NCBI GenBank assembly: GCA_965230905.1
Contig: OZ246396.1
Location: 690,001-722,000 of the forward strand
Length of the DNA: 32,000 bases
Direction of reading: 5' to 3'
From: Candidatus Saccharimonadota bacterium
GTDB lineage: Bacteria > Patescibacteriota > Gracilibacteria > UBA1369 > 2-02-FULL-48-14
Part shown: positions 6,983 to 29,108 of the stretch, piece after piece
Layout of the letters: every line of letters starts with the position of its first letter
Position numbering within the stretch: position 1 is the stretch's first letter
The notes under the pieces: generated by a model
Told to the model about the DNA's origin: nothing
Database searches by the model: none
The model's input: the letters and a program-made list of their open reading frames with translations, nothing else
Position numbers and translations under genes: made by a program

Positions 6983-6990
6983 GTGGGCTC

Positions 6991-7018
6991 TTGCCAGCAG
7001 ATACAATCGTGGTACAAT
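6991..7018 (+). promoter_or_regulatory. Promoter candidate for the large ORF
   Basis: TTGCCA (6991..6996), a 16-nt spacer, then TACAAT (7013..7018). Its position argues for the ATG at 7040 rather than the GTG at 6983 as the start. Confidence 0.45.
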
Positions 7019-7039
7019 TACTTATCTCTTAAACAGGTT

Positions 7040-10000
7040 ATGAACGAAGCCGGACTAGAAGCTGCGGAGTTACTTCTTCAAGAAGGTGCGCTGGCCTTAA
7101 AGCCACGCGCAGAAGAGGGTGTGTCTGATTCTGTTCGGAATCAGACTGGCAGGAGTGTCTTACGTTTGGTTGGTGCGCCACCTACAGCAAAGGAACGTTT
7201 AGATTGCCTCGAGGAGATTGGAAACCCTGCTGACTTTGCTGAACCGGGCAGCGTTTCGTTCCAATTGATGCAAGAAGTCTATGACAATGCTCCTAAAGTG
7301 GCTCGCGAAAAGTTGACGCAGATTTTAGCTAAAGTGGCGCCACTGCACCTTCGCCCGGTGGTGGCGGCTTTGACCAAGGCTATTGAAGAGAAACGGCTTG
7401 ATGGGATGTCTTGGAAGCAGATCACGGATGGAATTAAATTGGAAATTCCGCTCCAAGGGCATGCCATTACGGTTGCGGATATCAACGGGTACACTGCGTG
7501 TTTATTGAAAGGGGAATACCACGAAAAAGTGCAGACGGCCACGGACATAGTTCGTACCTTCAATGAGGTAGCTAAAGCAACGGGTGCGGTTTTGGTGGAA
7601 CCCGTGGAAGGAGATGCGGGGATGTTCCTGACCTTCAATGCGGCTCAGCAGGTAGAGCTGGAATCTGAACTCAAGCGAAAGATTCCGATGAGAATTAAGA
7701 AACTTGAAAAAGAACTTCATGCGGATGGAACCGATAAATATCCGGTGGATCCCGAAACCGGTGAGCGGGTATTTAAGAAAAGTGTGGGAGTGGAAACTTT
7801 GAAGCAGATCCCGGGCGAGTTGAAAATGGTCGTCTATTCAGGAAAAGGGATCGCACAAGGAGCTGTGGTCGTGAGTGGGGAAGCTCGCGATGCTGCCGTT
7901 GAGTATCAGAAAAAAGCGGGTCCTGGGGAAACCCTTAAACAAGACTTGAAGGGATATGACGTAAAAAATCCAGATTGGAATAAGGATCCAGAATTGCCCG
8001 ATACTATCAACGTAGCTGTTAAATTAATTGAGGCACTTTTGAAGGTTAGTCCTTATTCAGCAGCCGCTTTTCAAGACCTCATCCATTCGTCTAAAGATGA
8101 AGGAGCTGAAGTCAGAAGCGCCAAGATGAATGCCTATTATTTGGCGCTTGAACTCAGCCCCGCTCCAGAAGACGATGCGCAAAAAGTGGACGCCTTTTGG
8201 GAGCTCCTGACTCAGGAGGGCACTGGCGATGACCGTATTCGTTTGTTTAAACCGGGTGGAAGTCGAGGTATGCATTTTTGGACGCAAGGAATCACGAGCT
8301 CAAAAGATTTTACGCAGGCCTTTGGGGCTTTCAATCAACGGATCAACCGTTTTGCTACGGAATGTGGACTCACGTTCCGCTTGAGTTTAGGGTACGAAGA
8401 TGCGCTTGAGCTTATTCTACTTCCAGACAGTTTTCAGGTGGATGCCACCGGCCCTTCCATTGTGGCAACGGTTCGTGGAATTGCGGCTTTGGAAGGGAAA
8501 GGGGATGGAAATTGGATCAGTGTGGATCGTAGCGCGGTAACGGCTATGGGTCTGGTTGGAATGGAAATGACCACCATTTATATCAAGGGGACTCCGTATC
8601 AGACGGTGCAAGGTCGCTTGGAGCCGGATGGGAAATGGGAGCTGCGAGAAAGTTTAGTTGGACGCGAAAAACAAGAGGCTGAAATAAATAGCTTTATAGC
8701 CTCCTTGGGTTTGAATGGAGTGGCACTGCGAGTGCATAAGCCTGCAAATGCAAAGGATTCCGGGTATGGAGAATCTGCGTTGCTTCGTGCTGCCGAACGT
8801 GCGGCTTCAGGTAAAGGCATTCAGGTTGTTCAATTGAAAAATAAAGAGACCTTGTTTGATGACCTTGAAGCCCAATTGGGTTATAGCTGTGAGGAACTTA
8901 TTAATAATCCTCAACTCTTAACTCGTCAGGTGCTTTTGACTTTGGATGAAGATTCTTTTAGCCCCGACTTAGCGGCTCGGCTCGACCGCTTCCTCTTTGC
9001 CATGGCGGGCACGCCTCTTGGAATTATTTACACTGGAGCCTATCAGTTCCGTCCAGAGGCCTTTATGGGAGATGCCTACAGCGGGAAAGAGCTCAGCAAA
9101 GACATTGAGGTGGATGCTCTTAGCACTGAAGCTGCTTTGGATCTTATTTTTAAAGCCCGTCCCGATTTGAAACCACAGGATCGTCCACTCATCGCTCAAT
9201 TGCTTGCAGAGTGGGGCAAGCCGCTGGTTCCACGCGCCTTGATTCGTAATTTTGCCCAGGCTTTGTTTGAGCAAGGAGACGGATGGGAACTCAAGCCGGC
9301 CCTATTGGAACAAGCCCATGCCGGAGCCTTGGATTATGCTTTGGAAGCTGCTGGTTTGAATGAAACGGATCGCACGGTTTTGGGTGTGGTTGCCGAAATA
9401 GGGTATGGAGTGCCGCTTGAATTTATACAAAATGTGCTTGGCTTTGATTGCGCTGAAGCGCTCGGTCATTTGCTGGATGAGGCTCATCCTTTCTTGGTAT
9501 TAGAAGGGGGACTTTATTCCGTTCGCGAATCGTCCAGCCGACAGGCACGGCTCTTGGCACGAAAATATCAGCCAGCCGTACATGCAGAACTCCAAAAACG
9601 CGGATTTTTGAGAGAAGATCCCGTTGTGGATGAGCAAAGTTTGGATCGAAGTATGCTTGAGTTGGAACACGCGTTGGCGCACGTTGAATCGTGTAAATCG
9701 CCTCGTACCCTTTTGCTCATGGCGCGCTTGGGACATTACTATTTGAAGGAAAGAAAAAACTTTGGCGCCGCGTACGGCCTGTACCACCGCTTCTTGGAAG
9801 CGTGTGAAGGGCATGAGCTAGATTTGGGCGGACTGCCGGAAGATTTGCTGCATGATTTGGTGTGGGCACTTTTGGAAACGTCGCACGAAAAGGACACGAA
9901 GTGGGCACAGCTTTTAATTAAAGCTCATTCTGAAGTGTCTACCCCTGAACTCATGTGGAGAGAGAAAATGAGGCTGTTGAGGCTTACGCCCAATAAAGAT

Positions 10001-11005
10001 TTAGATGATGTGCCTGAAGGAGATGCTTATAGTGCGATTGTGGCCCAGATCCGTGAGGCTTCTGAACGTTTGAATGCAAAGGGAATCACTCTACATGCTG
10101 AACTTATAAAAGACATTCAGTCTTTAGCTGCTTTCACTAAGTCCGCCCAGATGGCGAGTGAGGCAGATTCTTCGCAGGAAGTCTTGTCTCTTGCCTTTGC
10201 TGGGGCAGCGCTTTCCAGGCTTTCTTGTGCGGCTCGGCAATTGGTGCGGCTGGCAAAACTAGTCGAAAAGAAACTGCCAGAAGAGCTTGAGTTTGCTCGT
10301 GATCTTCGAGCGGCTGGATCTAGTGCTGAGTTCGACACACAAAGACGTTTGCTCTCTTTGGGAATCAATCTAGCTGGCCTGGATGCAACTTCTGGATTGG
10401 ATCAAGAGCTTATGGCAGAAATTCTCCGCTGTCTTTTAGATACTTATAAATACCTAGCGTCCACTCCAAGTGCTGAAGAGATGAATGTGATCAACCGTTA
10501 TCATGATCGTGCTGCTAAATCCTTCTCTAAATTGGAACGGCCCGTTCAGTATGCCGCCCTAGATGCATTTGATGTACAAGCTAATGCATTTGCCTTGCAC
10601 TGGCAAAGAAAATTACCTTTACCAGGAATTTTTCCAGGTGAAATAGAGTCCACGGCAACTAGTGAAGATAAAGCTGTTGTTTGGGAAGTCTTAAGTGATT
10701 TTGAAACAAAAGTACGCGTTCAATTGAATCATGCTATTCGTAATGCGCTTGTGCCGATGCGTCACCGTTTGACGCATCAACTTATGAATTTCATTCAATT
10801 AAAGATGCGCCTTCTCAAAAGAACTTTTCATGAAAATGATCGACAGTTAGTCGAAAGCTTGGATGATGAATATTTATTGCTTGCACAAGATTCTGCGCGT
10901 GTTTGTTTGCTTTTCACCGGAGAGACACAGGATGATTATTATGCATTAGAATGTGCTCCAATTAAGAAAGCCGTGGATCAAATATCCACGGCCTCTCAAG
11001 TTTAA
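7040..11005 (+). CDS. Large (1321 aa) cyclase-like / AAA_16 STAND-like / helical-repeat protein with a degenerate P-loop
   Basis: The long ORF is uninterrupted. An alternative GTG start at 6983 would overlap both divergent promoters. The motifs HAITVADINGYT...EGDAGMFLTF follow the class III cyclase pattern. LVGREKQEAEINSF, then KDSGYGES at the P-loop position, then VLLTLDEDSFSPDLAARLDRFL follow the AAA_16 pattern. The C-terminal ~550 aa are helix-rich. The domain calls come from motif reading only. Confidence 0.9.
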   Translation: MNEAGLEAAELLLQEGALALKPRAEEGVSDSVRNQTGRSVLRLVGAPPTAKERLDCLEEIGNPADFAEPGSVSFQLMQEVYDNAPKVAREKLTQILAKVAPLHLRPVVAALTKAIEEKRLDGMSWKQITDGIKLEIPLQGHAITVADINGYTACLLKGEYHEKVQTATDIVRTFNEVAKATGAVLVEPVEGDAGMFLTFNAAQQVELESELKRKIPMRIKKLEKELHADGTDKYPVDPETGERVFKKSVGVETLKQIPGELKMVVYSGKGIAQGAVVVSGEARDAAVEYQKKAGPGETLKQDLKGYDVKNPDWNKDPELPDTINVAVKLIEALLKVSPYSAAAFQDLIHSSKDEGAEVRSAKMNAYYLALELSPAPEDDAQKVDAFWELLTQEGTGDDRIRLFKPGGSRGMHFWTQGITSSKDFTQAFGAFNQRINRFATECGLTFRLSLGYEDALELILLPDSFQVDATGPSIVATVRGIAALEGKGDGNWISVDRSAVTAMGLVGMEMTTIYIKGTPYQTVQGRLEPDGKWELRESLVGREKQEAEINSFIASLGLNGVALRVHKPANAKDSGYGESALLRAAERAASGKGIQVVQLKNKETLFDDLEAQLGYSCEELINNPQLLTRQVLLTLDEDSFSPDLAARLDRFLFAMAGTPLGIIYTGAYQFRPEAFMGDAYSGKELSKDIEVDALSTEAALDLIFKARPDLKPQDRPLIAQLLAEWGKPLVPRALIRNFAQALFEQGDGWELKPALLEQAHAGALDYALEAAGLNETDRTVLGVVAEIGYGVPLEFIQNVLGFDCAEALGHLLDEAHPFLVLEGGLYSVRESSSRQARLLARKYQPAVHAELQKRGFLREDPVVDEQSLDRSMLELEHALAHVESCKSPRTLLLMARLGHYYLKERKNFGAAYGLYHRFLEACEGHELDLGGLPEDLLHDLVWALLETSHEKDTKWAQLLIKAHSEVSTPELMWREKMRLLRLTPNKDLDDVPEGDAYSAIVAQIREASERLNAKGITLHAELIKDIQSLAAFTKSAQMASEADSSQEVLSLAFAGAALSRLSCAARQLVRLAKLVEKKLPEELEFARDLRAAGSSAEFDTQRRLLSLGINLAGLDATSGLDQELMAEILRCLLDTYKYLASTPSAEEMNVINRYHDRAAKSFSKLERPVQYAALDAFDVQANAFALHWQRKLPLPGIFPGEIESTATSEDKAVVWEVLSDFETKVRVQLNHAIRNALVPMRHRLTHQLMNFIQLKMRLLKRTFHENDRQLVESLDDEYLLLAQDSARVCLLFTGETQDDYYALECAPIKKAVDQISTASQV

Positions 11006-20441: not shown

Positions 20442-20453
20442 ACAGACGTACGA

Positions 20454-20523
20454 AGACTGTCTTGGGTCGATTCAGCGGGAGCCTTTATGCTGAATCTCTC
20501 CAAGCAGTCTGAAGGCGTTTTTT
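20454..20523 (+). terminator. Long hairpin with the conserved loop GGGAGCCTTTAT (copy 1), followed by a T6 run; probable fbp terminator
   Basis: AGACTG(T)CTTGG-gtc-GATTCAGC [GGGAGCCTTTAT] GCTGAATC-tct-CCAAG-CAGTCT spans 20454..20510. TTTTTT follows at 20518..20523. The hairpin begins 12 nt after the fbp stop. Confidence 0.5.
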
Positions 20524-20526
20524 CCT

Positions 20527-20552
20527 GTAACTAAAAGCTTTTCCCCTGCGTT
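20527..20552 (+). promoter_or_regulatory. ECF-type promoter candidate upstream of the ECF sigma gene
   Basis: GTAAC (20527..20531), a 17-nt spacer, then CGTT (20549..20552). This resembles the common ECF GGAAC-N16-17-CGTT pattern. The ATG at 20560 would sit at or near the transcription start. Confidence 0.35.
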
Positions 20553-20559
20553 TAAAGTA

Positions 20560-23051: not shown

Positions 23052-24143
23052 TCAGTCGCCCATTCCCACAAAGCCCAGGGCTAGGCCAAGGGTTGCAATC
23101 AGAGCACCTACAATCCAAAAACGCATAACCACTTGAGACTCGGGCCAGCCGAGTTGTTCAAAGTGATGGTGCAGAGGGGCGATGAGAAAGACCTTTCGGC
23201 CGAAGCATTTTTTTGACGTGAGTTGAATGATGACGGAGAGCGTTTCAATCACAAAAATAGACGCAATGAAGGGGAGGATGAGTACCGTGTTGGTGAGCAT
23301 CGCAATGACGCCCAGGGTGGCTCCCAAAGCCAGGGCGCCGGTGTCTCCCATATAAAAACGGGCCGGTGGGATATTGAACCAAAGGAAGGCTAGGGTGGCC
23401 CCGCAGATCACGGCACAGAAGGCGGCGAGTATCAAAAGGCCGTGTGCGTAGGCGAGTCCCGCGTAGGCGCCAAAGGCGATGATGATGAGGCCGCCCACGA
23501 GTCCATCGAGACCGTCGGTGAAGTTCACGGCATTTGCCGTTCCAGTGATTATGAAAACAAAGAGAGGGATGTACCAAAAATCTAGTTCAAAGTCGCCCAC
23601 GCCGGGTATGTGGATTTCGTTGTAGCCAAGTTTGTAATAGAACCACCAGCCTCCCATGAGGGCCAGCACGGTGAGCCAAAAGAATTTAGGTTTGATGTTT
23701 AAGCCTTTGCTTTGGCCCCAGCCTTTGATGTTGAAAAGGTCGTCCACCATGCCTAGTACGGCCACGGTTGCCAAGGTGAAAATGGGCAAGTAGGTTTCAC
23801 TTCGGCTGAGCAGCGAATGTTCAAAAATTCCAAAATAAGACAGGGCGCGGGAGAGCACAATGGTCACCAAAACGCTGCCCCAAATGAGTATGCCGCCCAT
23901 GGAGGGAGTGCCGGCTTTTTTTGCATGGAGAGCGTGGTAGAGATCTGCATTTTTTCCGTCGCTGGCCACCGTGCGGATGTTCTTACCCAATTTCCATTTT
24001 CGCAGGAGTCCAATAAAAGGTTCCGCAAATACATAAGCGACTAGGAAGGCCAGAAATCCGGATCCAATAATAAGGATCAGGTGCCGGACGGTGTCGGTGA
24101 TGGGGAAGTAATTACCAAACATAGGCTCTGTAAATCCAATCAA
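23052..24143 (-). CDS. mraY: Phospho-N-acetylmuramoyl-pentapeptide transferase MraY (363 aa; alternative start at 24122)
   Basis: A polytopic membrane protein with MraY motifs: MVDDLFNIKG, NAVNFTDGLDGL, MGDTGALALG and APLHHHFE. Confidence 0.95.
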   Translation of the reverse strand: MIGFTEPMFGNYFPITDTVRHLILIIGSGFLAFLVAYVFAEPFIGLLRKWKLGKNIRTVASDGKNADLYHALHAKKAGTPSMGGILIWGSVLVTIVLSRALSYFGIFEHSLLSRSETYLPIFTLATVAVLGMVDDLFNIKGWGQSKGLNIKPKFFWLTVLALMGGWWFYYKLGYNEIHIPGVGDFELDFWYIPLFVFIITGTANAVNFTDGLDGLVGGLIIIAFGAYAGLAYAHGLLILAAFCAVICGATLAFLWFNIPPARFYMGDTGALALGATLGVIAMLTNTVLILPFIASIFVIETLSVIIQLTSKKCFGRKVFLIAPLHHHFEQLGWPESQVVMRFWIVGALIATLGLALGFVGMGD

Positions 24144-24984
24144 CTAAAGTTTTGGTGTCCGTGAAGCGGCTTTTGCTGCCCAGGATCACCGTTAAAATTT
24201 CATGACCTTCCGGGCTTTCGGCCAGGGCAATTAAACATTCGCCGGCCCCCGGAGTGGTGCCCGTTTTAAATCCTTTAATGCCCAGTTCGCCGATTAAAAT
24301 ATTGGTGTTGCTCAGTTCATGTTGGTCGCCGGTTTCGCTGCTCACGGTCACGCTGCTTTGATTCACAATTTCGCGCACGCTGTCGTCTTTGAGCAGGTGA
24401 GTGGTGAGGGCGGCGAGGTCACGTGCGCTGGAAAAAGCTCCGCTGTTGTCGAGGCCATTGGCGTTTTTATAATGTGTGTCTTCCAGGCCGAGTTTATCGG
24501 CCATGGTGTTCATTTTTGCAATAAAATCTTTTTCGCTGCCGGCGTTGAATTCGGCTAAGGCAAGCGCGGCGTCATTCCCGGAAACAATCAAAAGTCCGTA
24601 CAAAAGATTCCGCACCGTGATTTGTTCACCCGCGTAGATTCCCATGCTGGAACCCGTGGCGCTGGCGGCATTGCTGCTCACGGTCACCACGGCGTTTGGG
24701 TCGTTTTCTTCCAAAACCAGTGCGGCGGTCATGAGTTTGGTGAGGCTGGCGATTGGCACGCGAGTCATAGAATTTTTCTCAAATAAAATCGCCTGGGTTT
24801 CCAAGTCCACGGCCAAAATGGTTTGAGCGGTCATGCTTCCCGGGGACACAAACTCCTCCTGTAGCACCGGTACCGAAGACACAGAGAGCAGCGTTTTATC
24901 GTTAAAAGCCACTTCACTGCCGGCTCCAAAGGACCCAAGGGTCAGACTGCTGGCGAGAAGGAGAGAGAGGAGGCTTTGGAACAT
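24112..24984 (-). CDS. D-alanyl-D-alanine carboxypeptidase (peptidase S11 / PBP5-like), 290 aa from the ATG at 24984
   Basis: SxxK (ASLTK), SGN (VSGND) and KTG (KTGTT) motifs are in the correct order. The start is chosen at MFQSLLSLLLASSLTLGSFGAG (signal peptide), because the 33-codon upstream extension in the ORF track is encoded by the palindromic element at 24995..25117. Confidence 0.9.
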   Translation of the reverse strand: MFQSLLSLLLASSLTLGSFGAGSEVAFNDKTLLSVSSVPVLQEEFVSPGSMTAQTILAVDLETQAILFEKNSMTRVPIASLTKLMTAALVLEENDPNAVVTVSSNAASATGSSMGIYAGEQITVRNLLYGLLIVSGNDAALALAEFNAGSEKDFIAKMNTMADKLGLEDTHYKNANGLDNSGAFSSARDLAALTTHLLKDDSVREIVNQSSVTVSSETGDQHELSNTNILIGELGIKGFKTGTTPGAGECLIALAESPEGHEILTVILGSKSRFTDTKTLVDWIYRAYVW

Positions 24985-24990
24985 GCAGGT

Positions 24991-25018
24991 AGTATAGACG
25001 GGAACTTTAGATTTCCAA
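24991..25018 (-). promoter_or_regulatory. dac promoter candidate embedded in one arm of the long hairpin; -10 box 6 nt from the ATG
   Basis: On the minus strand: TTGGAA (25018..25013), a 16-nt spacer, TATACT (24996..24991), then acctgc and the ATG (24984). Confidence 0.4.
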
Positions 25019-25117
25019 ATAGAATAAGAGCTTTTGTATGCGCTGTTCGCACGGGAGCCTTTATGTGCTCCCAGCGCATACAAAAGCTCTTACTTAAAAA
25101 TCTAAAGTTCCCGTCTA
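24995..25117. repeat. 123-nt near-perfect hairpin/inverted repeat with the conserved loop GGGAGCCTTTAT (copy 2)
   Basis: The 20-nt block TAGACGGGAACTTTAGATTT (24995..25014) pairs with 25098..25117. The 21-nt block TAAGAGCTTTTGTATGCGCTG (25025..25045) pairs with 25072..25092. The closing stem GCAC/GTGC encloses the loop at 25053..25064. There is an asymmetric bulge of 10 versus 5 nt. Confidence 0.9.
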
Positions 25118-25126
25118 ACGGCTATT

Positions 25127-25180
25127 GAGAAGAGGAAGGTGAGGTACATAAGGGCTCCCGTACCGAACCTCCCTCTCCTC
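25127..25180 (-). repeat. Hairpin with the conserved loop GGGAGCCCTTAT (copy 3), starting in the stop codon of the LCP gene
   Basis: On the minus strand: GAGGAGAGGGAGGTTCGGTAC [GGGAGCCCTTAT] GTACCTCACCTTCCTCTTCTC. Stem pairing is 17 of 21, and the 5 closing base pairs are perfect. Confidence 0.8.
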
Positions 25181-26606
25181 AATATATTCCAATATAAAAC
25201 AACTCGTCGTGTTCTTCGTAGAACTCTGCAAAGTCTTCGCCCAGGATGATGATGATTTTAGCTTCAGTGGGGCGGCTCACCGGCTGGTATTCGGCGGGAA
25301 CCGTGCTGGTGATTTCTCCAAAGGTCATGGTGGGCAAGAGTTCCAGCGTGGCGTCATTTCCCTCCACAAGGGAGATGATTTGCGTGTCGCTGGTTTCACG
25401 GTCGAGGGCGTTTCCGTAGCTCACCACGTTGAATCCATAACGTTTTAAATACATTTTGGTGAGTCCGGCGAGGCTGTCCTCTTTGGTTCCGTTCAGCACT
25501 TCAATGGGCACATTTCCCATGGTGATTTCAGGATGGTAGAGGAAGAGTTGAGCAAAGAGTTGGAGCTCTACAAAATTCATTTCGCCGGCGTAGGGGATGA
25601 GGTAGTACGGCTCGTTTTCTTCCCGGGGTGGAGTGTAGAGAAATCCGCCTATAGAAGTTGCGTCGTCGCTGATCACCGCAGAGAATATGGAGTCGCCGGT
25701 GAGACCTTCGGCAAAGTCCACCAAGGAGAGCATTTCATCCAGTTCCATATCGGTTTCAAAATTGGAAGATATAGCCCAGTAGAGGTCTTTGATTTGGCTT
25801 GGACTCGTCAGCATGCCCATGCTCATGGCCTTGTCTTTAATGGCGGAGATCACTTCTTGTTGGCGGCGAGCACGGTCGAAGTCGGAGGTGTTGTGGCGGC
25901 TGCGCACATACTTGAGCGCGGTTTCTCCATCGAGTTTTTGCACCCCCGCTTCCAAATAAAATGGATCGTAGAGATAGTCGGACCCGTCGGGGGCGGGGTA
26001 GGCGTCGTCAATAATGGTTTGTTCTACGTTCACGGTGATTCCGCCGAGCGCATCCACAATGTCCACAAAACCCTGGAAATCTATTTTTGCGTAGTAGTGG
26101 AGTTCCACATCGAAGACTTCCTCAATTTCTCCCCGTAGTTGATCCATGGCATAGAGCGGATCTTCGGTTTCGTCGAGCACATATTCATAAATACTGTTGA
26201 TGCGCGTGCCCCAGCCCACTTCTTCATTCTCCACATAAAAGTCGCGTGGGATGGAAATCATGGAAACGGTGTTGGTGTCGTGATCAATGGAAGCCACCAT
26301 CATGGTGTCCGTGAGGTTTTCGCCGTCGTGGCCTTCACCGCCCACTCCCACAAGGAGGACGTTGGTGTGTCCGTAGGCATCGGTTTCCACTTCCTGGCCC
26401 ACGGCTGAAATGAAAATTTGCTTAACGGAAAAAGGATTGCCATTGGCAATGGCGCCCACCACTCCTTTGAGCGTGAATAAGCCCAAAACAAGTGCCAGCA
26501 GGCTCAAGAAAATATGGCTTTTGATCCATGTCTTGGCTCCCTTGCGGTTTCTACGTGGCTCTTCGTGACGAGGAGTCTGAATAGCTCTGGTTTCGAAAGA
26601 ATTCAT
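25179..26606 (-). CDS. LytR-CpsA-Psr (LCP) family cell-envelope transferase with a C-terminal LytR_C-like domain (475 aa)
   Basis: An N-terminal TM anchor is followed by NVLLVGVGGEGHDGENLTDTMMVASIDHDTNTVSMISIPRDFYV...ALKYVRSRH...SDFDRARRQQEV, which is the LCP core pattern. Confidence 0.92.
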   Translation of the reverse strand: MNSFETRAIQTPRHEEPRRNRKGAKTWIKSHIFLSLLALVLGLFTLKGVVGAIANGNPFSVKQIFISAVGQEVETDAYGHTNVLLVGVGGEGHDGENLTDTMMVASIDHDTNTVSMISIPRDFYVENEEVGWGTRINSIYEYVLDETEDPLYAMDQLRGEIEEVFDVELHYYAKIDFQGFVDIVDALGGITVNVEQTIIDDAYPAPDGSDYLYDPFYLEAGVQKLDGETALKYVRSRHNTSDFDRARRQQEVISAIKDKAMSMGMLTSPSQIKDLYWAISSNFETDMELDEMLSLVDFAEGLTGDSIFSAVISDDATSIGGFLYTPPREENEPYYLIPYAGEMNFVELQLFAQLFLYHPEITMGNVPIEVLNGTKEDSLAGLTKMYLKRYGFNVVSYGNALDRETSDTQIISLVEGNDATLELLPTMTFGEITSTVPAEYQPVSRPTEAKIIIILGEDFAEFYEEHDELFYIGIY

Positions 26607-26717: not shown

Positions 26718-27116
26718 TTAATTGTTTTGTACTGCTCTGATTGCTGCTTGTGTTGCGCGAACAACTGGACCAATTTCTTTAAATATTTCATCAAGTCTTA
26801 CTCTTTTTGCTTGGATACCTGGGTGTGCAAAGGCAGCTGCGAGTGAAATTATCTCATCGTCGGCAAGCCCCTCTACGGGTTCACGAGCTACCTTATAGAA
26901 TTCAGCTGCGGCTGATACAAGAGCAGTTACTCTTTCTTGATCAAAGTAGGGATTGTTGACTACATGTTCATCCAGCCATCGGAAGACTTGATCTGAATCT
27001 TGTGCATGTGGTGAGAGGAGAGGATTGAGTGCATTGTGTCCGAGAATTAGTTTCGGGTCCTCTAACGCTCCAGCTATGAGCGCAAGACCATCTGCGATTA
27101 AACTTTTGCCTTCCAT
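26718..27116 (-). CDS. Hypothetical protein (132 aa), first gene of the low-G+C island
   Basis: Helical-looking ORF with no recognisable family. Confidence 0.6.
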   Translation of the reverse strand: MEGKSLIADGLALIAGALEDPKLILGHNALNPLLSPHAQDSDQVFRWLDEHVVNNPYFDQERVTALVSAAAEFYKVAREPVEGLADDEIISLAAAFAHPGIQAKRVRLDEIFKEIGPVVRATQAAIRAVQNN

Positions 27117-27203
27117 GCTTATTTGTTACACCCAAAAAGTATACAGATTGTTTTGTTCCATACAATGTCCAAGGCTGTACGATGTTTTTGCTTGTTACAA
27201 TTT

Positions 27204-27223
27204 CGCACTATGCGAATAGTGCG
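27204..27223. repeat. Perfect 8-bp stem with a GCGA tetraloop
   Basis: CGCACTAT-GCGA-ATAGTGCG lies between two minus-strand genes, 28 nt downstream of the stop of 27251..27526. No U-tract follows on the minus strand. Confidence 0.6.
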
Positions 27224-27250
27224 TGTTATGTGATGTATTTTTGCGGCTAT

Positions 27251-27526
27251 TTATTTACCAAACATTCTTACTCTAATTCCTTCAGCTTCTTCTGCAAGTT
27301 TTTGCCATTCTTGTGTATTACTTGGCGGGTTTTTATCAGCCAGGACAGATAGCTGGCAAACAGTGTTAGGATCGAATTCTCCAAACGCTTCTCGAAATTT
27401 CCCCCGTGTCATACCAGTTTTAATGTGGATAAATTCAATACTGTTTGCAGCGGCTACAGCTTCCAGATCTTCTCTGCTTGCAAACCGCCTTGCTGTATCT
27501 GCTAATTGGCGAATTTTATCTAACAT
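27251..27526 (-). CDS. Hypothetical protein (91 aa)
   Basis: ORF with a strong promoter directly upstream. No family recognised. Confidence 0.6.
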   Translation of the reverse strand: MLDKIRQLADTARRFASREDLEAVAAANSIEFIHIKTGMTRGKFREAFGEFDPNTVCQLSVLADKNPPSNTQEWQKLAEEAEGIRVRMFGK

Positions 27527-27534
27527 AGAATACT

Positions 27535-27562
27535 ATATTAGCAAAAACTTGCATTTTGTCAA
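27535..27562 (-). promoter_or_regulatory. Promoter for ORF 27251..27526, -10 box 8 nt from the ATG (leaderless candidate)
   Basis: On the minus strand: TTGACA (27562..27557), a 16-nt spacer, TAATAT (27540..27535), then agtattct and the ATG (27526). Confidence 0.5.
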
Positions 27563-27806
27563 GGTCTGCCGCAAAAATATAGCATATAATTCGTTCATAT
27601 GCTAAACGGCGAGGGCTCGATCTATCATCTTGGCCACATCTCTTAACTTAGTGTTTTTTGACTTGTCGAAAATAGCTATACAGTGAGCTCTCACTGCTTC
27701 GCTGAGATCACTTGGGGTGCCGCTTCATCTTCAGCGACTAGAATTTTGCTGGCCATATTGCAAAGGGTTGGAAAAGTAATGTTTATGCATTTTCTTGGCC
27801 GTCGTC

Positions 27807-27833
27807 CGGAACGTTAGCAGAAGTTGCGCTGAC
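27807..27833. repeat. Left copy of the ~27-nt inverted repeat bracketing ORF 27835..28410
   Basis: CGGAACGTTAGCAGAAGTTGCGCTGAC. The inner 14 nt, GAAGTTGCGCTGAC (27820..27833), are perfectly repeated in reverse complement at 28457..28470. Confidence 0.75.
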
Positions 27834-27834
27834 G

Positions 27835-28410
27835 TTATTCCACTACCTTTACTTGAGCAAAATGTGAATAACAATCTGGAGCTCCTCTGCCTCCAGTGTA
27901 TAGGTATCGTTCGAGCTCGACTGTTATTGGATTTTCAGAGCTAGAATTCAGAATTGTTTCTGATTCTTCTAAGGAATTGGTGTATTTTTGCATGCCGAAT
28001 TCGTTGGAATCATTCATGCGCCATAAAATATCCTCTTCGATACATCCCAATCCAATGCTCGTTTCTCCTACAAAAGAATTTCCTCTTTGCTCCTCGATGT
28101 AATCATCAAGGAATTCATTGTCGGTGTTTAATACATTGAAGAAAGTATATGTATAGATTGGACAATTTTCTTCACAAAAAGCTTCTGGTCTTTCCTCGAA
28201 AGTAAGATAACCATTAACTACAAGTTTGCCGTAGTATGCGTAATTGTCCTCGTCATAGTGAAAGTTGTCTGTTGCTGATTTTTCTTCGTTATCAGCACGA
28301 ATGCTTTCATTGTCATCCAGCAAAGAGGAAATCCTGTTTTCTTGCCAAAAGTAAACCGAAATACCAACCGCGACGCAGACAACGAGAACGATACCTAATT
28401 TGTTATTCAT
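27835..28410 (-). CDS. Membrane-anchored or secreted hypothetical protein (191 aa from the ATG at 28410), low G+C
   Basis: MNNKLGIVLVVCVAVGISVYFW is a signal anchor. An acidic, Asn/Tyr-rich domain with 4 Cys follows. The 29-codon extension in the ORF track (start at 28497) covers the inverted repeat and is probably not coding. Confidence 0.7.
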   Translation of the reverse strand: MNNKLGIVLVVCVAVGISVYFWQENRISSLLDDNESIRADNEEKSATDNFHYDEDNYAYYGKLVVNGYLTFEERPEAFCEENCPIYTYTFFNVLNTDNEFLDDYIEEQRGNSFVGETSIGLGCIEEDILWRMNDSNEFGMQKYTNSLEESETILNSSSENPITVELERYLYTGGRGAPDCYSHFAQVKVVE

Positions 28411-28456
28411 ACTTCGTTTATTAGTTGAATAAATTGTACACAACTGCAAATCAGAA

Positions 28457-28483
28457 GTCAGCGCAACTTCAACTAAGTTTCCG
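28457..28483. repeat. Right copy of the inverted repeat bracketing ORF 27835..28410
   Basis: GTCAGCGCAACTTCAACTAAGTTTCCG is the reverse complement of the left copy with 23 of 27 matches, and the inner 14 nt are perfect. Confidence 0.75.
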
Positions 28484-28525
28484 CTTTTGTTGGCCATATT
28501 TCAATAGCTTTGTCGAAAACTTTCG

Positions 28526-28969
28526 CTATGGCCCAACTTTTCTTTGAAGGTAAAGGCGCGGCTCTCCATCCCCAAAATAATTGTCCTTCCACCCCGTGAT
28601 ACAAAAATCAAAATGTAAATATATCAATATCGCCGGAGTATTCCCCGGATGAACAACTAATGAACAGTTTTTGTTGCCGATTTCATCTAATAGTTTGTTC
28701 ATGGCTAAACTGGCAATACCCTGTCCACGATATTCTGGCATAACGGTAAGGCCGTTGACTAAAACGGCTCCATCGTCTTGGTTTTTATACGAGATAGTAC
28801 CGATGGCTTTATTGCCATTAATAATGGCATATACTTGGCTTTCCCCAATATACTTTTTATAGCCTTCCTCGCCGTCACAAGGTGCGAACATATCACTTGC
28901 TGCACCTTCCTCCAAAGATCGTGCTAGTTCCCAGTCATCAATAGTTATTTTTTTGAATTCAATATCCAT
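28526..28969 (-). CDS. GNAT-family N-acetyltransferase (147 aa from the ATG at 28969)
   Basis: LVNGLTVMPEYRGQGIASLAMNKLLDEI is the acetyl-CoA binding motif (R/Q-x-x-G-x-G/A). The size is typical of GNAT proteins. The start is chosen at MDIEFKKITIDD. Confidence 0.8.
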   Translation of the reverse strand: MDIEFKKITIDDWELARSLEEGAASDMFAPCDGEEGYKKYIGESQVYAIINGNKAIGTISYKNQDDGAVLVNGLTVMPEYRGQGIASLAMNKLLDEIGNKNCSLVVHPGNTPAILIYLHFDFCITGWKDNYFGDGEPRLYLQRKVGP

Positions 28970-29108
28970 ATTTGGGTTCTCAATTTCGTATAGAAAACAG
29001 ATATTAGTAGTATAGGTGAACTTAGTGGAAAAAGCATTGTGCAAAACTTTCGCGAAATTTGCAGCGATTTCAGGAATTTGTCAGGAAAATTCTGTTAGGG
29101 TGATTGTT

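Follow-up and report, generated by a model that had tools for sequence, protein, structure and literature searches.

Genomes of the CPR/Patescibacteria are usually described as small, streamlined and repeat-poor. Among the palindromic repeats known from other bacteria, the Correia elements of Neisseria have conserved 26-bp terminal repeats and a real TA duplication. PATE, which are derived from IS200/IS605, consist of two hairpins in the same orientation on one strand and are inserted beside a fixed tetranucleotide. The Rickettsia palindromic elements (RPE) are palindromic repeats of approximately 100-150 nt present in a small, reduced genome, where they are located between genes and also in frame inside genes; they were reportedly described by Ogata et al. 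in 2000. REP sequences are short, imperfect palindromes of 20-40 bp, one end of which bears an unpaired GTAG or CGTC tag (PMC3733652), and their units are organised as inverted doublets (PMC3116915).

Here, we analyse a long hairpin located between an LCP gene and the dac gene in a stretch of DNA of 32,000 nt, which is referred to as the window. The window belongs to a 1.307-Mb contig (1,307,106 bp) obtained from a Hainich groundwater metagenome, and the relatives of its MraY place the host in Candidatus Peribacteria/Peregrinibacteria (CPR). Such hairpin elements are described neither in the Peribacteria genome paper nor in the literature searched. Our analysis makes it fairly probable that this hairpin, named copy 2, is a full-length (~120 nt), non-autonomous and non-coding palindrome in the class of REP/REPIN, RPE or MITE-like repeats, and that it belongs to a lineage-restricted family of one Candidatus Peribacteria clade, a group of ultra-small groundwater bacteria.

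Structure of the hairpin and the start of dac

The genes at the hairpin are arranged on the minus strand in the order LCP, dac, mraY, and this order is kept in relatives. The features of the junction between LCP and dac are as follows (L numbers in the text denote the loci compared).

24112-24984, minus strand: dac gene (Peptidase_S11, Pfam E 3.7e-59), 290 aa, true start at ATG 24984
24985-25083, minus strand: spurious 33-codon N-terminal extension of the dac ORF, running through the hairpin
24991-24996, minus strand: -10 hexamer TATACT, whose first two bases form the terminal TA of the hairpin and whose end is 6 nt from the dac ATG
24995-25117, plus strand (the strand whose loop reads GGGAGCCTTTAT): copy 2, A-type two-tier palindromic repeat, from predicted folds, models and orthologues
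24995-25014: outer stem arm on the dac side, 20/20 complementary to 25098-25117; most of the promoter spacer on the minus strand
25013-25018, minus strand: TTGGAA, -35 hexamer of a putative promoter for dac, located within the element across the boundary of internal loop and outer arm
25015-25024, plus strand: segment CCAAATAGAA between outer and inner arm
25025-25092: inner hairpin (arms and apex), with arms 25025-25045 and 25072-25092, 21/21 complementary
25046-25071, plus strand: family apex of copy 2, composed of TTC, GCAC, loop, GTGC and TCC
25046-25048 and 25069-25071, plus strand: TTC and TCC of the apex
25049-25052 and 25065-25068: closing stem, GCAC and GTGC
25053-25064, plus strand: apical loop GGGAGCCTTTAT
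25093-25097, plus strand: CTTAA between the inner arm and the LCP-side outer arm
25098-25117: outer stem arm on the LCP side, pairing with 24995-25014
25179-26606, minus strand: LCP gene with LytR_cpsA_psr and LytR_C domains (Pfam)

The 123-nt hairpin with 45 base pairs that had been predicted for this spacer is confirmed by our analysis. Both arm pairs were recovered by an inverted-repeat search, and the fold lies beyond that of every shuffled sequence: the RNA fold of the minus strand has -77 kcal/mol (z -17.7; 0/200 shuffles as good) and the DNA fold of the plus strand has -45 kcal/mol (z -14.8; no shuffle matched). The inner pairing of GGGAGC with GCTCCC, which had been thought to be exclusive to copy 2, does exist and is used in the minimum-energy fold, but it is partly present in the orthologues as well (GAGAGC in L093 and L092).

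An intrinsic terminator is recognised by a G+C-rich stem of modest length which is followed directly by a U-tract. No intrinsic terminator is present at copy 2, where a T-run is absent 3' of the hairpin on either strand and which the terminator scan does not list. At the foot of its hairpin, an integron attC site carries conserved R''/R' boxes (RYYYAAC...GTTRRRY). We rejected copy 2 as such a site; a lone GTCTAAC (25112-25118, RYYYAAC type) is regarded as a chance occurrence, with no partner box at the other end of the hairpin and none in the other copies. Rfam covariance models gave nothing at the gathering threshold in the window and the related loci, and the sub-threshold matches are generic long-hairpin miRNA models only.

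The original prediction also held that the element supplies or overlaps the promoter of dac. The overlap is upheld, as the -35 hexamer lies inside the element; the whole promoter is not supplied by it, as the -10 hexamer is also present in relatives which lack the element. TTGGAA, a 16-nt spacer and TATACT together give 9 of 12 matches to the consensus and have the geometry of a sigma-70-type promoter (spacing of 16-18 nt, with the -10 some 6-8 nt before the start). The -35 is held by the block TTCCAAAT, common to L093, L087 and L108 and found also in L008 and L092. In every relative examined, with or without the element, a -10-like box ends 6 nt upstream of the dac ATG; it reads TATACT in the window, L008, L092 and L093, TAAACT in L005, L007 and L094, and TATAAT in L103. 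The -10 box is ancestral, because it has the same position before the ATG in relatives without the element, and the element probably contributes the -35.

Since the -10 ends 6 nt before the ATG, the dac mRNA is probably leaderless. In the source region (L096, L099), a Shine-Dalgarno sequence is present in 1 of 41 genes as against 12% at random positions, and TANNNT is found 4-9 nt before the ATG in 15 of 41 genes as against 6% at random positions; the sequence pattern suggests that leaderless mRNAs are widespread in the source organism, and a dac mRNA without a leader would agree with it. A GGGAG-N5-ATG in the loop of the hairpins was considered as a ribosome-binding site and start, and was rejected because the peptides downstream are unrelated and the genome does not use Shine-Dalgarno sequences.

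When ORF 24112..25083 is opened at a TTG, it yields 33 additional codons. That this extension is spurious, as had been proposed, is borne out by the relatives: the N-terminus MFQSL begins from the same ATG in all of them, and the extension has no counterpart at the empty junctions. It is an artefact of the open frame, since the MFQSL start is conserved at ATG 24984. The 323-aa call of dac appears in the ENA annotation only, and two other gene callers (L002-L004) start at ATG 24984.

Copies in the source genome and its relatives

A second copy of the entire 123-nt sequence is absent from the window. The loop motif is present in three intergenic hairpins of the window, against 0.27 expected by chance, and it is a 16-nt apex which recurs. 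Besides copy 2, these hairpins are:

20455-20509, plus strand (loop 20477-20488): copy 1, same-loop hairpin, 54 bits with model R1 and weak (22 bits) with model R2
25123-25184, minus strand (loop 25159 to 25148): copy 3, short A-type hairpin with loop GGGAGCCCTTAT, 74.9 bits with model R1

Copy 1 is located 13 nt past the stop codon of the FBPase gene, and a T-run (20518-20523) comes 8 nt beyond its stem. A side observation concerns the same interval: the window (20442-20559) and L008 lack a gene that several relatives have between FBPase and ECF sigma, and copy 1 is at that spot. This minus-strand gene encodes 381-389 aa without a Pfam match (L101 2877-4102, L103 10970-12202, L094 15893-17062).

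Copies 2 (plus) and 3 (minus) form an inverted doublet. They are 5 nt apart when the paired ends are taken, and not 9 nt as first stated. The LCP stop codon (25181-25179) is located inside the 5' arm of copy 3, and the 3' arm is complementary to the final LCP codons and the stop codon. The loops of the two copies are complementary at 11 of 12 positions inside one transcript, and the two hairpins folded together as RNA reach -115 kcal/mol.

A fourth A-type copy is present on the same contig just outside the window (L001 ~1008-1071, the same as L099 13902-13961). It is situated between the convergent HhH-GPD and DUF4349 genes with T-runs on both sides, and its 5' arm encodes the last 7 codons of HhH-GPD. 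In L094, these two genes overlap and no hairpin is present there. A strict palindrome census, covering 71 kb of the 1.307-Mb contig, revealed one additional long hairpin, which is of a second type (B-type) and lies ~4.6 kb past the window end on the same contig (L099 15003-15109). Its outer stem of 22 bp is near-perfect, and its RNA fold has -52 kcal/mol (z -8.2). Hence the source genome has five copies in 71 kb, all inside ~17 kb, and the other 54 kb inspected have none. Extension of the contig on both sides and at the murG locus gave no further copy.

Among the called genes of these 71 kb, no transposase, reverse transcriptase or integrase domain was found, and neither a RAYT nor a TnpA gene was seen there. 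The 220-aa ORF at 27835-28497 was rejected as a transposase, having no Pfam match and an N-terminal membrane segment. No GC-skew switch was found near the hairpin cluster.

Some observations elsewhere in the window may be recorded separately. The gene content between comEC and the LCP gene (26718-29044) differs among relatives. In the window this interval holds a GNAT acetyltransferase and three ORFs without a Pfam match (220, 91 and 132 aa), in L094 a PemK toxin and eight metabolic genes, and in L092 only one gene, of 216 aa. The 220-aa ORF, whose protein looks membrane-anchored, is bracketed by an inverted repeat of 27 nt (27807-27833 and 28457-28483). A very large ORF at 6983-11005, of 1340 aa by the ORF listing and called as 1321 aa, has no Pfam domain on record.

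Four copies of ~120 nt are located at unrelated loci in related metagenomic genomes. These copies, L085, L086 and L087 (JGI) and L108 (a Logan orthologue), are mutually homologous over ~120 nt and two-tier like copy 2. One architecture is common to all copies of the family: in addition to the long stem there are a small TC/TC internal loop, a closing helix of 4-5 bp and a 12-nt loop, GGGAGCCYTTAT, and the last three make up the nearly invariant apex that marks the family. The closing helix covaries (GTAC/GTAC, GCAC/GTGC, AGC/GCT), and compensatory change is seen in 19 of 35 consensus pairs of a six-copy alignment. The loop is invariant across the seven copies of alignment A2, except for a C in place of T at loop position 8 of copy 3; outside this alignment, L092 and L108 have GGGGGCC at loop position 4. 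The apex of 26-32 nt recurs at no fewer than nine unrelated loci in at least three genomes, and it is the most conserved part among copies, the termini being the least conserved. An exact 20-mer scan of the JGI metagenomes gave only three matches, all three of which are family hairpins. In a 16-mer scan of viral contigs, 0 of 4 matches lay in a hairpin, so that these are taken as chance and viral carriers were rejected; BLAST of the element against phages and plasmids gave no match.

The covariance model of the joint alignment (R2) gives more than 100 bits for L085, L086, L087, L108 and copy 2, the last scoring 125.7 bits. Copies 3 (aligned to model positions 33-94) and 4 are partial members and copy 1 is a weak one. 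Copy 2 also matches the family profile A6 (nhmmer, E 1.5e-28), and its apex scores 80 bits with model R1. Outside the apex, the arms of copy 2 are only 40-55% identical to those of the non-orthologous members. Of the two arms, a leave-out test recovered the left one (E 0.03, the best match in the window) and missed the right one; the left arm carries the block TTCCAAATAG-AATAA, which is common to L087 and L108. Because of this arm identity and of a leave-out test which recovers the left arm alone, full-length membership of copy 2 in the family is graded as probable. A mobile module consisting of the apex only, with unrelated or locally built stems, was rejected, as the homology among L085, L086, L087 and L108 extends from end to end and copy 2 weakly matches them in its left arm.

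Profile searches reveal that a B-type unit adjoins every A-type copy in L085, L086, L087 and L108. Such A+B doublets occur in L085, L086 (two), L087 and L108. The two units are inverted in L085, L087, L108 and the second L086 site, and have the same orientation at the first L086 site. The centre of the B-type consists of GGGAGC, a hairpin of ~40 nt and then GCTTTAC, so that the halves of the A-type loop flank an additional hairpin. L086 4536-4668 is homologous to the B-type hairpin of the source genome (L099 15003-15109), and one L086 copy is an A/B hybrid. Since the B-type flanks repeat the halves of the A-type loop and a hybrid exists, the family is a mosaic of palindromic units with the common unpaired motif GGGAGC/CTTTAT. 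The pair of copies 2 and 3 in the window is laid out like these doublets. A tRNA-Leu(TAG) gene (L086 4841-4924) is located ~50 nt from an A+B doublet in a divergent spacer, with the doublet upstream of the tRNA gene; therefore, members of the family also occur elsewhere than at 3' ends of protein-coding genes.

The original prediction had named further copies and empty sites as its test of mobility, and both were found for this dispersed, non-coding palindrome. The proposed comparison of LCP-dac junctions among relatives gave filled, remnant and empty sites (the spacer is counted between the LCP stop codon and the dac ATG):

Window, 194 nt: filled, copies 2 and 3 complete
L093 (LCP 85% identical), 163 nt: filled, whole orthologue of copy 2; copy 3 reduced to its 5' arm and half the apex, TTCGGTAC
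L092 (LCP 85% identical), 106 nt: filled, no copy 3; copy 2 without the LCP-side outer arm
L008 (79%), 59 nt: remnant, outer stem and -35 only
L094, L095, L103, L005, L006 and L007, 14-35 nt: empty

The orthologous hairpins of L093 and L092 carry different deletions, and the dac-side outer arm of L092 is identical to that of the window though its partner arm is absent. The reverse is seen at murG. In the source genome this gene shares an ATGA overlap with the glycosyltransferase gene that follows it, and a 231-nt A+B doublet is present there in L087 (3951-4182), L108 (2078-2339) and L109 (10811-11037). The doublet comes behind codon 2 of the glycosyltransferase gene, and all 77 of its codons are open in frame, in two lineages. 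The sequence to the right of the L087 hairpin was rejected as an ancestral start of the glycosyltransferase, since this stretch is a B-type unit. Gene callers disagree on the start of this gene downstream of murG.

Origin and possible roles of the hairpins

The arms of the hairpin have changed in pairs. Among the three copy-2 orthologues (window, L093 and L092), 12 pairs differ at both partner positions; the outer stem accounts for 7 of them and the inner stem for 5. As a control, 0 of 500 shuffles reach 12 double changes and slid partners give 0-1. When the window is compared with L093, 7 of the 20 outer pairs have both partners replaced, and both outer stems are still perfect. G-U pairs are tolerated on the transcribed strand, both in copy 3 and in the L093 orthologue of copy 2. 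Perfect stems could result from selection on the transcript or from template switching between the arms, and the compensatory changes and G-U pairs fit RNA selection as well as a DNA mechanism.

The units of the family are long, often two-tier hairpins in which the unpaired GGGAGC/CTTTAT is best conserved, and they tend to form inverted doublets. The A-type unit presents the motif as its 12-nt apical loop and the B-type unit as halves around a ~40-nt hairpin. An ancestor of the window lineage would have acquired the doublet in its short LCP-dac spacer and passed it on vertically. Its arms may have been kept complementary via paired changes, under transcript selection or by arm-to-arm template switching, and deletions would have eroded it in sister lineages. 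In the window lineage the element is proposed to set an outward-facing TTGGAA 16 nt upstream of the resident -10, which would create a sigma-70-like promoter for a leaderless dac mRNA. By the modelled fold (~ -115 kcal/mol), the two hairpins at the 3' end of the LCP transcript would probably insulate or terminate read-through. By analogy with REPIN/RAYT or IS200/IS605-type systems, the family would most likely spread via an enzyme that reads the folded single strand, and the motif might be its recognition determinant.

Against mobility stands the finding that the five copies in 71 kb are clustered in ~17 kb without a transposase-like gene there. No target-site duplication is definable at the copies, and in the sequences compared the centre is more conserved than the ends, which is the reverse of a classical MITE. 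Copy 2 persists across ~15-20% protein divergence, and such a long persistence would make no case for recent movement.

The alternative that survives best, which we regard as unlikely, is that the hairpins are cis-acting RNA elements of the host (3'-end stabilisers, terminators or processing sites), in which the loop binds a protein, an RNase or a kissing partner and which are kept by selection. The invariance of the loop while the stems diverge, the covariation of the closing helix and the long stems and the G-U pairs on the transcribed strand speak for it, as do the location of most copies directly after stop codons, the T-runs after copy 1 and the fourth copy, and the 11/12 complementarity of the loops of copies 2 and 3 in one transcript. 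However, both orientations relative to transcription occur (copy 2 is antisense), one doublet lies in frame within a coding region and another in a divergent spacer ahead of a tRNA gene, close relatives have empty sites, copies in sister lineages have decayed by deletion, and no Rfam family matches.

It is conceivable, at a rather low probability, that GGGAGC/CTTTAT is the recognition site of a candidate hairpin-specific enzyme or RNA-binding factor. The hairpins would then represent a new, apex-recognised mobile or regulatory class, with stems free to vary or rebuilt locally by arm-to-arm copying.

A local origin of each palindrome, with arms formed on the spot by inverted duplication or template switching round a short seed and without movement between loci, is very improbable. 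The perfect arms of 20 and 21 bp point in this direction, and so do the 7 mirrored outer-stem substitutions between the window and L093, the complementarity of the copy 3 3' arm to the last LCP codons and stop, and the dac-side arm of copy 2 that is identical in L092 with its partner arm absent. The recurrence of the same 26-32-nt apex at unrelated loci and the homology of L085, L086, L087 and L108 across the full 120 nt argue against it. Moreover, L093 retains the 5' half of the copy 3 apex, which indicates deletion of a complete hairpin and not one that never formed. Local origin is thus largely refuted as the sole explanation; the perfection of the arms could be due to local copying.

The weakest reading is an IS630/Tc1-mariner-type MITE, for which GACGGG...CCCGTC would be the terminal repeats and TA the target duplication. 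In its favour are the TA at both ends of copy 2, a size typical of a MITE and the existence of further copies and empty sites, but it can be set aside as highly improbable. The dac-side TA belongs to the -10 box TATACT, is present also in L008 and just prolongs the palindrome. TA flanks are missing in L085, L086 and L087, whose termini differ (GAATTCGG..., GGGAATCCGAG...). Conservation of the element is lowest at its termini, and no DDE transposase was seen in the 71 kb of source genome.

If the hairpins are dispersed palindromic repeats, as we favour, their entry into gene junctions would turn 15-nt spacers into structured spacers of 200 nt. The family would give a -35 box to a leaderless cell-wall gene and sit in frame inside another gene, and its members may mislead gene callers into false N-terminal extensions. 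This has a bearing on annotation and operon rewiring in these organisms and on the search for the enzyme which moves or binds the hairpins.

Comparison with known palindromic repeats

Like the Correia elements and other promoter-carrying MITEs, the Peribacteria elements are intergenic hairpins of ~100-150 nt, flanked by TA in the case of copy 2, which can give promoter hexamers to a neighbouring gene and add RNA structure to the transcript upstream. Unlike Correia elements, their termini are poorly conserved and TA flanks are missing from the other copies. With PATE they share a pair of hairpins in each unit, presumably read by an enzyme in folded single-stranded form, and the lack of a target duplication. 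In contrast to PATE, the units are mostly inverted, no conserved flanking tetranucleotide is present and no TnpA gene was found in the 71 kb.

With RPE the elements have in common their size, a small genome and a location between genes and also, in frame, inside genes; the A+B doublet of L087/L108, which leaves the glycosyltransferase frame open behind codon 2, is reminiscent of RPE. The two are not known to be related in sequence, the phylum is different, and doublets and an invariant apex are not features of RPE.

The REP/REPIN/BIME sequences of Proteobacteria, mobilised by RAYT tyrosine transposases, are compared here as described in PMC3116915 and PMC3733652. Measured against these accounts, the Peribacteria units are longer (60-123 nt versus 20-40 nt) and have no unpaired GTAG/CGTC tag; copy 2 does have GACG/CGTC close to its ends, but in paired form, and the other copies lack it. 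The conserved determinant is the unpaired loop or internal-loop motif GGGAGC/CTTTAT and not the stem base, and the copies are few so far, with no RAYT gene seen in the 71 kb of 1.3 Mb inspected. As in the REP systems of the same two accounts, the elements are non-coding palindromes located mostly past coding regions. They are frequently arranged as inverted doublets able to fold in single-stranded DNA or mRNA, form mosaics of unit types with occasional copies within genes, and are lineage-restricted and vertically persistent. In the general sense of an interspersed, MITE-like repeat, the family has homologous copies at unrelated loci and both filled and empty sites among relatives.
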